DNA of 40,668 bases from positions 1 through 40,668 of the IMG/VR virus record IMGVR_UViG_2534682060_000017; one strand, given 5' to 3'. The first letter of the stretch is position 1; each line of letters starts with the position of its first letter. Shown one piece after another: positions 1,307 to 14,162 of the stretch. Source of the DNA: a virus. Its lineage: Duplodnaviria > Heunggongvirae > Uroviricota > Caudoviricetes. The position numbers were made by a program, and so were the translations under genes. The notes beneath the pieces were generated by a model. It did no database searches. It had not been told where the DNA came from and saw only the letters and a list, made by a program, of their open reading frames with translations.

Positions 1307-3778
1307 TTAAAAATCAACCGGATTCGGGATCAGTTTTTGCCAGATTGCTGAAACGTATTTTGCCTGGTAACGGGCGTCATCAAGTGCATTATGGCGCTCA
1401 CCTTCGAATGGAATAGCCGTTCTGGCATCGAAGTCTATGGCTTTCCCCAGCTCAACGATTGTGCGTACATCGCGATCGTTGTAGTAACGCCACGGGCAGG
1501 GGATCCCCTGCCGTTCGTATGAACGGCGCAAAATCGTGTTGTCGAAGTTGGCTCCATTTCCCCAGACCTGAACAAAAAATTCACCGGAGTTTTCGTCGAT
1601 AAATTCCCGCAATTGTAACAGTGCATCATCTAACGGGATTTCATCGGTCATAATGGCAGATTGCGCTTCGCGTGATTGCTTAAGCCACCATTTAATGGTG
1701 TCCCGATCAATGACTCCGCCAGCAGTTTCCAGATCGATAGTCTTACTAAATTCCGGTCCCATATCTCCGGTTTGCGGATCGAAAAATATTGCACCTATTG
1801 AGATAATCGGGGCATCAGGATTTTTTCCCATGGTTTCAAGGTCGATCATTAGATGGTCACACGTCCTGCTGGTGGATGTGATAACGTGATGACCGTTCAC
1901 CGTAATTAAGGGATCTGCCGTCTCGCCAGTTTCACTATCGCTGGCGTGATCCTGAGCGCTGCCAGCATTCTCTTTGTGTGGATGTTCAGCGCCTTCCATT
2001 TTCTCCGAATCGTCTTCCTGAACTTCAACCTGGTTCTTGTCATCGAATGTTTCCTGGTATGTTGCGTCGCCCATCACCGCACCACAATCAGGGCAGTTGC
2101 CGCCGCCGGTCTGACCGCAGGCGGTGCAGACTTTTTCCGCTTCCTGTTGCGCTACTGGCTCAGGTTGTTTCGTTTCTGGCTCGTTTTGTAACGCATTTGG
2201 GCTGTTTTGTTCCGCTTTCTGGTCGTTCTGTTCCGTTTCTTGCTGGTTCTGATTCACTGAATCGCGGGTTTCAATCCCCTTCACCCATTTCGGATCATTC
2301 GGGTCGCTAATCCCTGCAACAAATTCACCACGTGATACAGCAAGCAACTTATCGGCGTCAGGCTGGCTGATATTGGCTGCCTGCATAATTTTGTTTACTT
2401 CGTCAGCGGTAACTTTTACCGGCTCTGGTTGTGCGGTCGTGTCAGATGCACCAGTATTTTGTTGTGAACCTGAGTATGTACCGTTTTTACGGGCAAAATA
2501 TTCTTCTTTCGTGATTTCAGTAGCCCCTGCAGTCAGCGCCTTATTCAGACCAGAAAGTTTGTTTGCGCGACCATATTTTTCGCCATCCTTATCTGTGAAG
2601 AGGAAGTAGAACGGCCCCTCACGCTCTACAGATGGTTCGACTTCAACTTTGCATTCGGTTTTTTCGTTGTCCGGAATTGCCGTTTCCACTGCATCAGTTT
2701 CTGGTACTGGCGACGAGAGAGTATCAGTTGCGCTCTGATTTGTTCCTTCATCTTCAAACACGCCCTTTGTAGTCAGGTATTCAGTAATGTATTTGTTCAG
2801 TGCCACAGGGTCTTTGTGAATGTCGATCGGACGTTCACGGACAAGGCCAAAAATAGTCTGTCGGTCGTAGCGAAGGGCATCAGGCTGTTTGCGCATTGAT
2901 GCCGAGATACGCTTCCAGTCTTCGCGGTCGTTGTCGATAACTTCATTTTTTGCCCAGCGATGGATGCTGCCGTCAATGTTTCCGGCATCCACATCACCAG
3001 GCCAGAGAGCGTAGGCCAGTTCGTCATCCAGTGTTTTCCATGTCTGCTTGTATTCGCGATGAGTGGCAGCAATGACCGGGCTGATTTTTCCTGTTGAATT
3101 GTCAGTGTACTGTTGATTGGCTCTGGCGCGGGCGAGATCAACAACAGACGTGTATTTTCCGGTTTCCTTGCGTTCACCTTCGCGACGTTTTTTCCAGATG
3201 CGCATCTCTGCCTGAATTTCGGGCCATTTAGCACCAGGAATACATTTATGCTTAACCCACCCAATGGCGTGCAACTTAAGCTCCGGATACATGGCGTTAA
3301 CTTCTGGCATTTTCATCAACGCTTCAACGATATGTCCGTCGAATGTTGCCATGTCTTCCTGCAACAATTCCTGTGCGCTAATAACCATATCAACGGTGAT
3401 GTTTTCACATGTGTCGAACTTAACCAGGACCGCGTTCTGTACTTCAGGGGACAGCTTGTCAAAATTGACGTTCATCGGATCGGATTCTGGCTCGACCGGA
3501 ATAAAGGAAGCGGATTCCTCATCCCAGCAGTTTTCCTGCATATATTCGGTATCCCAGGAGTCGATGGCAGGGCGGGGCATGCCGGGTTTATCCTCGCAAA
3601 CAAGAAATTTATAAGCGCAGTCCTGAGCAGCCGGATATTGCTCCAGGAATTGCCAGGTAAATTTGGCTCGGGCGCGGCGTTCGTCGCCGGCTTCAATGGC
3701 AGTGGCTACAGCGACTGCACCTTCTTCCTTTATTGCCTGTTCGTCCGGAATGGCGGCGCAAATAAAGACTTTACTCAT
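1307..3778 (-). CDS. RecE-like exonuclease (exodeoxyribonuclease VIII-like) with C-terminal DEDDh/DnaQ-like 3'-5' exonuclease domain
   Basis: 823-aa ORF; C-terminus carries DLETMG ... HNALDDARY motifs typical of DEDDh exonucleases; central acidic low-complexity linker; GAGG about 10 nt upstream of ATG. Confidence 0.8.
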   Translation of the reverse strand: MSKVFICAAIPDEQAIKEEGAVAVATAIEAGDERRARAKFTWQFLEQYPAAQDCAYKFLVCEDKPGMPRPAIDSWDTEYMQENCWDEESASFIPVEPESDPMNVNFDKLSPEVQNAVLVKFDTCENITVDMVISAQELLQEDMATFDGHIVEALMKMPEVNAMYPELKLHAIGWVKHKCIPGAKWPEIQAEMRIWKKRREGERKETGKYTSVVDLARARANQQYTDNSTGKISPVIAATHREYKQTWKTLDDELAYALWPGDVDAGNIDGSIHRWAKNEVIDNDREDWKRISASMRKQPDALRYDRQTIFGLVRERPIDIHKDPVALNKYITEYLTTKGVFEDEGTNQSATDTLSSPVPETDAVETAIPDNEKTECKVEVEPSVEREGPFYFLFTDKDGEKYGRANKLSGLNKALTAGATEITKEEYFARKNGTYSGSQQNTGASDTTAQPEPVKVTADEVNKIMQAANISQPDADKLLAVSRGEFVAGISDPNDPKWVKGIETRDSVNQNQQETEQNDQKAEQNSPNALQNEPETKQPEPVAQQEAEKVCTACGQTGGGNCPDCGAVMGDATYQETFDDKNQVEVQEDDSEKMEGAEHPHKENAGSAQDHASDSETGETADPLITVNGHHVITSTSRTCDHLMIDLETMGKNPDAPIISIGAIFFDPQTGDMGPEFSKTIDLETAGGVIDRDTIKWWLKQSREAQSAIMTDEIPLDDALLQLREFIDENSGEFFVQVWGNGANFDNTILRRSYERQGIPCPWRYYNDRDVRTIVELGKAIDFDARTAIPFEGERHNALDDARYQAKYVSAIWQKLIPNPVDF

Positions 3779-3858
3779 TTTGTTTTAACCTCATTACAGA
3801 TTTAAGGGTGAACAAATCCCTGCCATTGCTGGCATATAAAAATGAAACCGGATATTAA

Positions 3859-4062
3859 TTACGGTGCTGTTTTAAGTCCTGCCGGGATTTCGTTATTGTC
3901 CATGCGAATAACTTTATCAACCGGATAACAGTTGCCGGGAATTTTCTGTTCCGCTGCGGCAGCCATGCATTCTTTCATTGAGTCATGTATACCAATAACA
4001 AGATCGACTGGCTCGCCTGTATTAAGAAAAACTGTCAGAACGAGTGCAAATACTGTATTCAT
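3859..4062 (-). CDS. Hypothetical small protein with N-terminal hydrophobic signal-like segment
   Basis: Internal ATG at 4062 preceded by AAGGA RBS (8-nt spacing); N-terminal MNTVFALVLTVFL hydrophobic stretch; translationally adjacent to upstream gene. Confidence 0.45.
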   Translation of the reverse strand: MNTVFALVLTVFLNTGEPVDLVIGIHDSMKECMAAAAEQKIPGNCYPVDKVIRMDNNEIPAGLKTAP

Positions 4063-4064
4063 TG

Positions 4065-4247
4065 TCAGCGTCCTTTTTGCATCAGGCGTAAACGGGCCAG
4101 CATTGAAACAATGCATATTTGATTTAATAGCTCCCGTTCGTGTTTTCTCTTGTTAATGGCATCTTCAGTAAATACAGGGTTACTGATTCTGACACCAATT
4201 TCAAAACAACCTTCAGACGTATTGACGTTTGGTAATAACGTTTCCAT
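4065..4247 (-). CDS. Hypothetical small early-left protein (kil-like position)
   Basis: 60-aa ORF; GAGGA RBS 7 nt upstream of ATG at 4247; position corresponds to kil in Rac/lambda early-left operons; identity not verified. Confidence 0.45.
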   Translation of the reverse strand: METLLPNVNTSEGCFEIGVRISNPVFTEDAINKRKHERELLNQICIVSMLARLRLMQKGR

Positions 4248-4265
4248 TATCGCATCCTCAACAAT

Positions 4266-4423
4266 GAATTTTGTGATGCGGTGCCTGGTGCCTCCAGGTG
4301 ACGTTAACCAGTTAACAATTAACGCCGGATACAGGGAAACCCATAAACCCCCGATACGGGGGAACTAATCGCTTTTTAACTGTTCCGCGTGCGCTTAGCC
4401 GCATTCACCGCATCACAAAATTC
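4266..4423. repeat. Perfect 18-bp inverted repeat pair (GAATTTTGTGATGCGGTG / CACCGCATCACAAAATTC) flanking a 122-bp segment
   Basis: Arms at 4266-4283 and 4406-4423 are exact reverse complements; interior has two GTTAAC palindromes and a CCCCCGATACGGGGG hairpin. Confidence 0.6.
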
Positions 4424-4791
4424 ACTTTAAAAAGGGCGGACATCAGCCAGCAATTAAACTGATGCCGCCAAAGGTCTCACACAAGCCTCAACATGGAGAT
4501 GTTGTGGCGGGGTTGTCACTCAGGCGTATGGTCAACCTGACAACCCGGTGCTACCAGTGGGGGTAAGGATAACCCCGCCATACTTACCGCCGCGCCATTT
4601 CGCGGAGTGCCACAACCGGAAGCGCACGGTCGAAGATACCGGCGACACGCAACAGAGGGAGAAATGACTTCGCCGTGCGCTTTCGTGTTGTGTGCCTGCT
4701 TTTAACCACGTCAGGCGAGGTGGTTCCTGTCATTCCCCAACGACAAGAAATCTGTATAATCTGGATATCCCCAACGATCCAAGGAAATCAT

Positions 4792-4938
4792 ATGACAGAG
4801 CAAAGAGCACAAGCAGGTGGTGGCAATTCGACACATAAAACAGTCTGGGATCACATACCAGAGAAAAACATTCGACCAAAACCATCTCCAGCTCCTTCGG
4901 AGGAGAGGGGGAACAGCAACAACCAAACAAGCAGGTGA
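4792..4938 (+). CDS. Small hydrophilic ORF (48 aa) translationally coupled to the SieB-like gene
   Basis: TATAAT at 4755-4760, AAGGA RBS 6 nt before ATG 4792; stop 7 nt before the downstream start at 4945. Confidence 0.3.
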   Translation: MTEQRAQAGGGNSTHKTVWDHIPEKNIRPKPSPAPSEERGNSNNQTSR

Positions 4939-4944
4939 TGATGT

Positions 4945-5391
4945 ATGGACCGGGATGATATTCTTGACAGAATTTTATATGGCTATTTTCTTGAGCAACT
5001 ATTTTCGGTAGCAACTGGTCGTCTCGATAAACTTCTCTCAGTGGTGAGTATTATCCTCGGTTCATCTGTCATTGGCGGATTCATTCCGGAAATTTCTGGC
5101 GTTTTTATTGTTGTGATCGCAACCGTCCAAACGATTTATGGATTCGGACAAAAGTCAGGTAACGCCATGAGAAAATCCGCAGAATATTTGCAGCTTTTTG
5201 ATGATGCAGAAAAATATTCTGATTCTGAATTGAAAATGCAGTTAAAAATTCTGGAAAAAACGGATGTTCATATTTGGTCATCACTTAAAGATATTGCGAT
5301 CTTAAAAACACAGATCAAAATAGGCGTTTCCATCGAACAACAAGAGAAGCTGCCCACAAAATCTAAATTGATGCGATTTCTTTGTAGTTAG
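4945..5391 (+). CDS. Putative superinfection exclusion membrane protein (SieB-like)
   Basis: 148-aa ORF on opposite strand inside the early-left region, as sieB is in lambda/Rac; long hydrophobic segment LSVVSIILGSSVIGGFIPEISGVFIVVIATV; AGGTGA RBS. Confidence 0.5.
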   Translation: MDRDDILDRILYGYFLEQLFSVATGRLDKLLSVVSIILGSSVIGGFIPEISGVFIVVIATVQTIYGFGQKSGNAMRKSAEYLQLFDDAEKYSDSELKMQLKILEKTDVHIWSSLKDIAILKTQIKIGVSIEQQEKLPTKSKLMRFLCS

Positions 5392-6188: not shown

Positions 6189-6217
6189 ACTATAGGTAAT
6201 GCCTAATTGATTGTCAA
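6189..6217 (-). promoter_or_regulatory. Predicted leftward early promoter (pL analogue) with overlapping operator half-sites
   Basis: On minus strand: TTGACA, 17-bp spacer, TATAGT; spacer and flanks contain TTAGGC/GCCTAA motifs shared with the racR-ydaS intergenic operators. Confidence 0.45.
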
Positions 6218-13192: not shown

Positions 13193-13879
13193 TACTAAAA
13201 TAAATTTGGAAGTGCTGTTACAATAGATAGAGGCTCATTGTCGAGTCTCTGTTTTAATTAGTTGGTTATTTTATGTTTATTTATTTCGATATCAGATAAA
13301 AAATCAATAAAGACAGCTTTGTTGCTAGTATTTAATTCTGTAGTAATATACGGATAGTTGTTTTCTGATATACCACATATCTTTAATTGTTGGTTTTTGT
13401 CTTAGTTGATTTAAATTCAATCAACCACTCCAGCAACCTAAATATTCCTCCAGTTCCAAACAATGAATATATGATCAGGAGCATAGCACTGCTCTTCATT
13501 AAAAATTTACACTTAGTTTTGAGAAAACTGCTTACGTTATCTTAACTCTGAATTTGTACATCTTAAGAAGTGCTAGTTATATTTAGTTGTTGTGTTCCAT
13601 GTTTTACAGAAAAATCAGAGAAACTGTACTCAATAGTTGCATTTCATCACTGATGAGACCGCCTTGTATTTATCAGGACTGGTGTACGTCCGATACAGAA
13701 AGTTGTCGTGCTGGTCCTCAAATGTGCGCTGGCTATTGCGGGTAATGGCAATTTATTGTCTTGCTATTGTCCTTATGGATCGCCTTTCTGATTGATTTTA
13801 TATTGGCGAGGTAACGGGAGTTAAGTACAATGGCTGCGGGTGCTTGAGGCTATCTGTCTCAGGCATGAACACCAAAGGC

Positions 13880-13960
13880 AGATAGAGAAAAGCCCCAGTT
13901 AACATTACGCGTCCTGCAAGACGCTTAACATTAATCTGAGGCTCAATCTATGAACGGCAA
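13880..13960 (-). ncRNA. Predicted Sok-like antisense RNA region (approximate)
   Basis: Inference from hok/sok architecture: antisense RNA normally overlaps the hok leader/upstream ORF start; possible minus-strand promoter TTGCCT-17-TAACCT near 13955-13985; boundaries uncertain. Confidence 0.25.
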
Positions 13961-14006
13961 ATCTAGGTTAGCCTCTTACGTGCCGAAAGGCAAGGAGAAG
14001 CAGGCT

Positions 14007-14162
14007 ATGAAGCAGCAAAAGGCGATGTTAATCGCCCTGATCGTCATCTGTTTAACCGTCATTGTGACGGCACTGGTAACGAGGAAAGACCTCTGCGAGG
14101 TACGAATCCGAACCGGCCAGACGGAGGTCGCTGTCTTCACAGCTTACGAACCTGAGGAGTAA
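14007..14162 (+). CDS. hok: Hok/Gef family type I toxin
   Basis: Product MKQQKAMLIALIVICLTVIVTALVTRKDLCEVRIRTGQTEVAVFTAYEPEE closely resembles Hok/Gef; in-frame upstream ATG at 13950 gives a mok-like extension; mRNA leader resembles the R1 hok leader. Confidence 0.8.
   Translation: MKQQKAMLIALIVICLTVIVTALVTRKDLCEVRIRTGQTEVAVFTAYEPEE

Follow-up and report, generated by a model that had tools for sequence, protein, structure and literature searches.

A probable dicF locus with a pseudoknotted, STnc100-related junction RNA before dicB in a Rac/Qin-type prophage

Identification of a probable dicF locus upstream of dicB

We analyzed a structured intergenic segment upstream of dicB in a 40,668-nucleotide (nt) sequence of a tailed virus of the class Caudoviricetes (IMG/VR record IMGVR_UViG_2534682060_000017; the whole stretch is here called the window). 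The minus strand of window positions 4240 to 4700 is very probably the homolog of the ydfC-dicF-dicB RNA of the Escherichia coli K-12 prophage Qin, that is, the dicF locus of a Qin/Rac-type lambdoid prophage together with its processing structures. The leftward transcript would carry, in order, a long hairpin (M1), a structured leader (M2), a variable, single-stranded DicF-like seed with its intrinsic terminator, a 164-nt pseudoknotted four-way-junction RNA, and dicB. We estimate the probability of the explanation as a whole, comprising a dicF locus, processing by RNase III as well as RNase E, and a junction RNA that is a divergent branch of the STnc100 family, at ~0.8.

From the end of ydfC to dicB, the minus strand of the window is 83% identical to K-12, with long near-identical blocks. 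Both arms of the helix that closes the junction RNA are near-identical, and the 3' arm of M1 is identical. The layout in Qin is ydfA, ydfB, ydfC, dicF, dicB, and ydfD, and the order in the window (DUF1391, RNA region, dicB, DUF1482, and exonuclease) is the same. Pfam searches identified DicB (PF05358, 127.5 bits), so that the gene that the original prediction had called kil-like is dicB, and also confirmed the DUF1482 (YdfD family) and DUF1391 (YdfA family) genes. This homology and the gene order shared with Qin lead us to assign the segment to the dicF locus. The stretch from 4200 to 4760 was matched in 4,724 of 5,426 complete E. coli genomes, at up to 10 places per genome, and dicB was nearly always annotated under the match. 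An identical copy is present in E. coli strain 0-4, in a prophage adjoining yccA, where the gene order is integrase, exonuclease, DUF1482, dicB, an unannotated 700-bp gap, an opposite-strand hypothetical gene, a further hypothetical gene, DUF1391, and racR/ydaS/ydaT. RefSeq annotates dicB in this genome but no RNA feature in the segment.

The region is orthologous to the K-12 Qin dicBF region (Faubladier et al. 1990; Balasubramanian et al. 2016; Ragunathan & Vanderpool 2023), and the closing helix, the core motifs, the 3' arm of M1, M2, and the dicB start are nearly identical in the two. The window differs from Qin in four respects: (i) its DicF is Rac/Shigella-like in both seed and hairpin body and scores just under the Rfam cutoff; (ii) the variable insert of the junction RNA holds an extra CCCCCGUAUCGGGGG hairpin; (iii) ydfB and ydfC are replaced by other open reading frames (ORFs) and an opposite-strand gene; and (iv) the immunity module is racR/ydaS/ydaT, not dicA/dicC. 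The prophage is a Rac/Qin mosaic, and the finding is a rediscovery of the dicF locus and its RNase III helices, largely known biology with a few new structural details.

The sole leftward promoter predicted by a promoter scan lies at 6217 to 6189, ~1.5 kb upstream. The segment, which had been described as the leader of the leftward operon, is therefore located in mid-operon. The more general proposal of a regulatory RNA element or small RNA (sRNA) agrees with our findings, as the segment lies inside the leftward early operon and contains an sRNA and an intrinsic terminator, but DicF had not been recognized. The description of the segment as free of convincing ORFs is borne out: the sole recurrent mini-ORF, which starts at the AUG of GAAUGCGGC, has 15 to 45 codons with unrelated tails among the homologs, and we rejected it as a gene.

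The DicF-like sRNA and the two long helices

The features on either side of the junction RNA are as follows:

~4612 to 4692, minus strand: M1, a long imperfect hairpin (core arms 4673 to 4685 and 4617 to 4629; from the inverted repeat and the minimum free energy stem)
4434 to 4483, minus strand: DicF-like sRNA (Rfam DicF, RF00039; 45.4 bits, E value of 2.1e-8, full-length match to model positions 1 to 52)
4439 to 4466, minus strand: DicF terminator hairpin (terminator scan), with a U-tract at 4429 to 4433
4406 to 4426, minus strand: 5' arm of the closing helix (helix P1), originally reported as the right-hand repeat; expected RNase III cut near 4415/4414 for the 72-nt DicF 3' end
4263 to 4283, minus strand: 3' arm of the closing helix, originally reported as the left-hand repeat; ends 15 nt before the dicB AUG
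4255 to 4259, minus strand: dicB Shine-Dalgarno sequence GAGGA, within the 15-nt stretch between the junction RNA and the dicB AUG
4065 to 4247, minus strand: dicB coding sequence (60 amino acids; AUG at 4247; Pfam DicB)

An Rfam scan of the window at gathering thresholds returned only sok (see below); a permissive scan of the region, of the kind that the original prediction had suggested, added DicF and STnc100, both under threshold. The DicF score of 45.4 bits does not reach the gathering cutoff of 48 bits; K-12 DicF scores 76.7 bits and the Rac version 39.1 bits. The DicF 5' seed and loop differ from those of K-12 (L002, positions 2383 to 2435), the terminator is kept, and the hairpin body is Rac/Shigella-type. 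As in a dicBF operon, the sRNA candidate precedes dicB and has a Rho-independent terminator at its end. Within the segment, the terminator scan flagged a single terminator-like site, the DicF hairpin with the CUUUUU that follows it. The best whole-length duplex of the sRNA with the ftsZ leader fell off the ribosome-binding site (RBS) and was no better than those of shuffled sequences, in what is a low-power test.

The Rac prophage of strain Z247 (L003) likewise carries a DicF-like hairpin (positions 4162 to 4217; 39.1 bits, under threshold) and, immediately upstream of kilR, an element related to the junction RNA (positions 3974 to 4160); no RNA is annotated there.

The inverted repeat of the original prediction is real and one base longer than described: its arms (4265 to 4283 and 4406 to 4424) are 19 nt long, 100% complementary, and separated by 122 nt. 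With one A-U and one G·U pair added, the helix extends to 21 bp (4263 to 4283 and 4406 to 4426). In 40 dinucleotide-preserving shuffles of positions 4000 to 5000, the longest perfect inverted repeat was at most 11 bp long, with a mean of 9.0. The segment had been suggested to be a terminator or antitermination site. The repeat is neither: unlike those of an intrinsic terminator, its arms are 122 nt apart, and the 3' arm is followed by GUUGAGGAUG. It forms the closing helix of the four-way-junction RNA and matches the site of RNase III cleavage known from K-12.

The 190-nt precursor of K-12 DicF owes its 5' end to RNase III, and the 53-nt form is produced by RNase E (PMC10448788). RNase III also acts on read-through transcripts, yielding a 72-nt DicF that extends 19 nt farther at its 3' end (PMC5069750, PMC9438474). 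Counting 190 nt back from the K-12 DicF 3' end leads to CCGUGCG^CUUCCGG in the 3' arm of M1, the arm that is identical in the window; the K-12 813/814 cleavage site was placed by this length since the promoter scan missed dicBp. Counting 72 nt from the K-12 DicF 5' end leads to GAAUUUUGU^GAUG (L002 position 2454), midway along the 5' arm of the closing helix. M1, whose 13-nt core arms are 92% complementary and are extended by flanking pairs in the minimum free energy fold, is on this basis the likely homolog of the site at which RNase III generates the precursor 5' end in K-12, with a cut expected near 4623/4622. The closing helix has 21 bp, of which 19 are consecutive Watson-Crick pairs, and RNase III sites are typically helices of ~20 bp or more. 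Because the K-12 ends map into both long helices, the inverted repeat appears to be the ortholog of a known RNase III substrate, and its 21 bp are the expected size for one.

Intercistronic RNase III sites of phages, such as the lambda N-leader and the T7 early sites R1 to R5, consist of a helix of about two turns just upstream of an RBS in a polycistronic early transcript. Cleavage at such sites separates functional RNAs and can change the translation or stability of the downstream gene. The helix in the window is comparable in size and placement; it differs from these sites in that it closes a large conserved pseudoknotted junction RNA instead of a simple bulged hairpin, and in that the upstream product is a regulatory sRNA.

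Structure and covariation of the junction RNA

The junction RNA consists of the following elements:

4263 to 4426, minus strand: junction RNA, a four-way junction (164 nt, with the inverted repeat as its closing helix; its end is 15 nt upstream of the dicB AUG)
4284 to 4405, minus strand: junction core, class-B STnc100-like (Rfam, alignment A2, RNAalifold, and pair counts)
4390 to 4403, minus strand: H1, in the junction core
4384 to 4387 and 4326 to 4329, minus strand: P2, enclosing a variable insert with the CCCCCGAUACGGGGG hairpin (4348 to 4362)
4318 to 4325 and 4301 to 4308, minus strand: H3, with its loop at 4309 to 4317
4294 to 4298 and 4284 to 4288, minus strand: H4, in the junction core
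4376 to 4382 with 4309 to 4315, minus strand: pseudoknot (inverted repeat and covariation)

RNAalifold predicted five helices from alignment A2, which holds 22 sequences. Covariation across homologous prophages had been named as a check of the original proposal. In this alignment, 94.8% of the cells were paired, compared with 33% to 38% in slid controls, in which the partners were shifted by 1 to 3 columns, and 22 of 40 pairs changed on both sides, compared with 3 to 8 in the controls; none of 500 shuffles reached the observed pairing values. The closing helix showed compensatory changes in 11 of 19 pairs. Its sequences are unrelated between lineages (Citrobacter, Klebsiella, and IMG/VR copies; e.g., AGUGAAUUUUGUGAUGCGGUG, AGCAGGCUUUAAGGUGCGGUG, and CAACAGACCUUGCAAUGCAGUG), and its length is kept at 19 to 22 bp; the exceptions, with 9 to 10 bp, are phages P1 and P7 and one IMG/VR copy.

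Folding of positions 4240 to 4500 gave structures far more stable than those of shuffled sequences on both the minus strand (z = -6.5) and the plus strand (z = -6.8). Since the stability is similar, energy alone does not tell which strand is relevant. We place selection on the RNA of the dicB-sense (minus) strand, as judged from the frequent G·U pairs of the alignment, each of which would read as an A·C mismatch on the opposite strand; the closing helix of K-12 itself contains two G·U pairs.

These properties also bear on whether the 160-bp unit with its 19-bp inverted repeats could be a miniature inverted-repeat transposable element inserted between dicF and dicB. Perfect terminal inverted repeats ~120 bp apart and many copies per genome, at up to 10 places, would be in keeping with such an element. 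We found no target-site duplication, however, as the flanks are AAAG and TTGT. The copies examined all have the same kind of surroundings, with a terminator ahead of them and a start codon behind, and the E. coli matches lie predominantly under an annotated dicB. The arms covary instead of being conserved, and the G·U pairs, of which the K-12 helix has two, are valid on one strand only. We therefore rejected a transposable element, which we consider extremely improbable, on the grounds of the missing target-site duplication, the constant context, and the covarying arms.

Both GTTAAC sites (4303 to 4308 and 4311 to 4316) and the CCCCCGATACGGGGG hairpin (4348 to 4362) that had been noted between the repeats are present. 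One of the GTTAAC sites is accounted for by the pseudoknot, in which CAGUUAA just inside P2 (4376 to 4382) is complementary to UUAACUG in the apical loop of H3 (4309 to 4315). The two strands vary together, with UGGUUAU/AUAACCA in phage P1 and GACUGAC/GUCAGUC in an IMG/VR copy. Canonical STnc100 elements carry the forms AUCAGCA/UGCUGAU, CCAGUCA/UGACUGG, AGGCUAC/GUAGCCU, and ACUGGAUA/UAUCCAGU. Among 168 nonredundant elements, a Watson-Crick run of at least 6 pairs between the two pseudoknot regions was found in 57% of within-sequence comparisons and in 18% of between-sequence comparisons. A covarying pseudoknot thus appears to be common to the whole STnc100 family, as suggested by many loci among L011 to L250. 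It is absent from the consensus structure line of Rfam STnc100 in the cmscan output.

Relationship to the STnc100 family

The Rfam STnc100 model (RF02076) matched positions 4270 to 4422 of the minus strand with 35.8 bits (E value of 7.8e-6; model positions 21 to 154 of 206), under the cutoff of 47 bits. The hallmark 3' motif TCACCNGGAGGCACCNGGCAC occurs once in the window, exactly, at 4281 to 4301, and none is expected by chance. The segment also has the other hallmarks of the family, namely, the GGUGAAU junction, the multihelix fold, and a covarying closing stem. The motif was found in at least 240 loci of many Enterobacterales genera and IMG/VR contigs. Most of these copies are canonical STnc100 elements, which score 47.8 to 107 bits and have a closing stem of 5 to 12 bp.

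A second group of copies, here designated class B, has the signature GUGAAU-GCGGCUAAGCGCACGCGG...GUUAACUGG. Its members are those of the window, K-12 Qin, Rac (upstream of kilR), the Stx phage 75/02 of Shigella (upstream of kil), phage P1 (upstream of tciA), and phage P7 (upstream of terB), as well as copies from Citrobacter, Klebsiella, Scandinavium, Pseudescherichia, and IMG/VR. The class-B copies tested, including those of K-12 Qin and Rac, score 32.5 to 43 bits for STnc100, under the cutoff; one class-B-type copy (L023) reaches 47.8 bits. All class-B copies inspected are followed, 20 to 67 nt past the motif, by the start of an ORF with 30 codons or more (dicB, kilR, a 282-amino-acid ORF, and other, mostly small ORFs), and the Escherichia and Shigella copies are preceded by a DicF-type terminator hairpin and U-tract.

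Class B shares with STnc100/PasD of enteropathogenic and enterohemorrhagic E. coli (EPEC and EHEC) prophages the closing helix with GGUG.../...CACC, the GAAU junction, H1 with a GCG-containing loop, H3, the CCNGG-AGGCA-CCNGG hairpin within the identical 21-nt motif, and the pseudoknot between the junction and the H3 loop. It differs in four ways: (i) the sequence of H1 is different; (ii) the closing helix has 19 to 22 bp instead of 5 to 12 bp; (iii) an RBS and an ORF follow, rather than a seed and a terminator; and (iv) class B is located in the early-left operon, whereas the canonical elements are located in the late region near Q, stx, or esterase genes. On the basis of these sequence features, the junction RNA is classified as a divergent, long-stemmed relative of STnc100.

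A different possibility is that the junction RNA itself is the product, in which case RNase III would cut both arms and release a ~140-nt pseudoknotted RNA that acts in trans or binds a protein, a role that has been proposed for STnc100/PasD sRNAs, its place before dicB being secondary. The fold is kept beyond the needs of an RNase III site (H1, H3, H4, the invariant loops, and the covarying pseudoknot), and the long helix occurs without DicF in other genera. The canonical relatives are regarded as sRNAs that associate with Hfq and have targets (bioRxiv 10.64898/2026.05.13.724894), and 81 of 148 canonical copies have a run of at least five T residues within 110 nt downstream, consistent with a terminator of their own. 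The class-B copies, in contrast, lack a terminator or U-tail of their own and always stand directly before a start codon; in the window, the dicB AUG follows 15 nt after the element, with no terminator. A released species is also not reported in the K-12 dicBF literature available. We consider such a trans-acting product unlikely as the main role. It is nevertheless compatible with the processing model rather than exclusive of it, as the released core may itself be a stable RNA.

Proposed processing of the dicF-dicB transcript

Cleavage in M1 and in the closing helix, trimming by RNase E, and termination have been demonstrated in K-12 and are transferred to the window on the strength of near-identical sequence. 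In the model that we favor, RNase III would cut M1 and generate the 5' end of a ~190-nt precursor, which RNase E would trim to the mature sRNA. Most transcripts would stop at the DicF terminator, where most transcripts end in K-12. In read-through transcripts, RNase III would cut the closing helix ~19 nt past the terminator, giving a DicF with a longer 3' end and parting the sRNA from the dicB mRNA. If the two cuts are staggered by the usual 2 nt, the one in the 3' arm would fall near 4273/4272, and the dicB mRNA would retain a ~25-nt leader in which the RBS is free. Processing could in this way set the amount of toxic DicB that is made.

Partition-function folding gave the dicB RBS an unpaired probability of 0.19 to 0.23 in the read-through RNA, where it is partly paired with the terminator U-tract, and of 0.63 to 0.80 after the modeled cut. 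We give somewhat less than even odds to translational activation of dicB by processing. This step is weak because the Rac kilR version shows no predicted occlusion.

Several observations weigh against the proposed locus and its processing. (i) Both Rfam matches are under their gathering scores (DicF, 45.4 versus 48 bits; STnc100, 35.8 versus 47 bits). (ii) The seed lacks the CUCCG stretch that, in our reading, faces the ftsZ RBS in K-12 DicF, and the targets may differ. (iii) Cleavage in this prophage is predicted by homology. (iv) The 72-nt end was located by counting off the length given in secondary citations; its position is uncertain by ~5 nt, a margin that does not reach beyond the arm. 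(v) In folding models of the Rac kilR version, the RBS has an unpaired probability of 0.81 before the cut and 0.41 after it, so that occlusion is not predicted. (vi) In genera other than Escherichia and Shigella, class-B copies carry the long helix but no DicF upstream of it, and the helix of phages P1 and P7 has only 9 bp; DicF 3'-end formation cannot, for these two reasons, be the sole purpose of the element.

The structured leader M2

Between M1 and the DicF-like seed, the transcript contains a further conserved structure:

4494 to 4611, minus strand: M2, a conserved structured leader of the DicF precursor (~118 nt; alignment A4 and pair counts; model R1, 132.7 bits)

M2 comprises three hairpins, Ha (CCGCG/CGCGG), the variable local Hb, and Hc (GGGUUGUCA/UGACAACCC), along with a candidate pseudoknot formed by GUAUGG and CCAUAC. 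The sequence does contain the blocks GGGTTGTCA/TGACAACCC and TGGCGGGGTTGTC/GATAACCCCGCCA, whose complementarity the original prediction had pointed out. The outer stem that it had drawn from GGCGGGG... and ...CCCCGCC at ~4505 to 4580 did not hold up: this helix (GGCGGGGUU/AACCCCGCC) is paired in 81% of cases and shows zero covariation, and 275 of 500 shuffles did as well, so we rejected it. The local hairpin is kept with compensatory variants (CGGGG/CCCCG, CUGGGG/CUCCAG, CCAGGUG/CACCUG, and CAGGGG/CUCCUG), and the inner helix GGGUUGUCA/UGACAACCC is also kept, as GUUGCCA/UGGCAAC in phages P1 and P7. The candidate pseudoknot is 100% paired and reads GCAUGG/CCAUGC in a P1-like copy. A covariance model (R1) run over 98 loci found M2 only in Escherichia and Shigella prophages and in phages P1, P7, and cdtI. 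Covariation is thin because M2 is limited to these few hosts and phages, and the variation is too low for a firm model.

M2 lies just downstream of Pban in phage P1, in what GenBank calls the "dicF-like region"; it is also present in P7 and, downstream of cI, in phage cdtI. Every distinct M2 variant is followed by a variable linker and, 20 to 45 nt later, by an intrinsic terminator of varying sequence. M2 matched no Rfam family in the permissive scan of the region. A tRNA-like structure was rejected, as ARAGORN returned nothing over positions 4000 to 5000 and a match to mascRNA (E value of 7.5) was noise.

The position of M2 also raises the question of whether M2, the junction RNA, or both control elongation, as a put-like antiterminator or as an attenuator governing whether transcripts pass the DicF terminator and continue into dicB. 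Like putL and putR of phage HK022, M2 is a structured RNA in an early phage transcript upstream of a terminator. In phages P1 and cdtI it stands just downstream of repressor-controlled early promoters, as does putL in HK022 (PMC9378689), and no N-like gene is evident in the early-left operon. The put sites, however, are ~70 nt long, with two stems, a consensus sequence, and a place next to a promoter, whereas M2 is ~1.6 kb from the predicted promoter in the window. When read from the genome and compared by eye, HK022 putL and putR show no resemblance to M2 in sequence or in their two-stem, V-shaped architecture, and we rejected M2 as a put-like site. K-12 transcripts largely terminate at DicF, and the covariation of M2 is too thin to define a switch. 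The same architecture (a structured 5' domain, a seed, and a terminator) is equally well explained as an sRNA precursor. We consider control of elongation quite improbable and prefer to describe M2 as the leader of the DicF precursor.

Significance and wider occurrence

The prophage products DicF and DicB stop the host cell from dividing and change its metabolism and its susceptibility to phages; DicF also contributes to the control of virulence in EHEC. The amounts of both depend on termination and processing in this segment. Recognition of this copy as a DicF-type locus that retains both of its RNase III helices fills a gap in RefSeq annotation.

The K-12 dicF-dicB spacer, the Rac kilR leader, and elements in the ban operons of phages P1 and P7 all have the STnc100 fold, including the pseudoknot. 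This link ties a 35-year-old processing site to a widespread and functionally unexplained family of phage RNAs and provides testable mutations. A connection between the dicF-dicB spacer and STnc100 was not found in the literature searched, and the 2026 Pas/STnc100 preprint mentions neither DicF nor dicB. Compared with that literature, four points seem to be new: (i) the domain in dicF-dicB and in the kilR leader has the STnc100 fold; (ii) a long-stemmed subclass lies directly before host-killing genes; (iii) a pseudoknot extends across the family; and (iv) there is an M2 module.

More tentatively, the locus could represent the early-operon branch of a larger phage RNA superfamily (STnc100/PasD) whose shared unit is a compact four-way junction with a covarying pseudoknot. 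The unit would have two uses, as the 5' domain of terminator-ended sRNAs and, with a stem of RNase III size, as an excisable cassette before dicB, kilR, and tciA of phage P1 or terB of phage P7, and M2 would be a generic scaffold for DicF-like sRNAs with differing targets. We would not expect this broader proposal to hold in full. If it did, such an elaborate conserved fold would imply a ligand or protein partner.

The ban operons of phages P1 and P7 carry both M2 and a class-B element (P1, L006, positions 2495 to 2609 and 3842 to 3961; P7, L007, positions 1086 to 1203 and 2501 to 2616). M2 stands right after the C1-controlled Pban, the class-B element stands directly before tciA or terB, and tRNA genes lie between them, in an arrangement that parallels the dicBF operon. 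In P7, a tRNA-Sec-like match (L007, positions 2304 to 2388; 46.6 bits, with a gathering score of 47) is located just upstream of the class-B element.

Canonical STnc100 elements occur in two to three copies a few hundred bases apart in several loci: L138 (IMG/VR, three copies), L039, L050, and L060 (Pantoea plasmid pAPP145_2), L063, L090, L148, and L150. In some loci, the next copy begins ~35 nt past the previous one.

Neighboring genes and other features of the window

The following features lie outside the dicF-dicB segment:

4945 to 5391, plus strand: 148-amino-acid ORF in the position of sieB in Rac; it interrupts the leftward operon just upstream of M1
1307 to 3778, minus strand: 823-amino-acid "exonuclease" with a C-terminal Rv2179c-like 3'-5' exoribonuclease domain (227 bits)
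13838 to 14012, plus strand: sok antitoxin RNA (Rfam, 110 bits)

The ORF at 4945 to 5391 had been labeled SieB-like. It gave no Pfam match and no BLASTP similarity to Rac SieB, and its sequence gives no grounds for that label. A promoter serving this ORF would fall outside 4266 to 4680, contrary to the suggestion that the structured segment is antisense to such a promoter. The exonuclease gene, formerly taken to be recE-like, yielded no RecE-family match in Pfam. The sok RNA indicates that the prophage also carries a hok/sok-type toxin-antitoxin locus.

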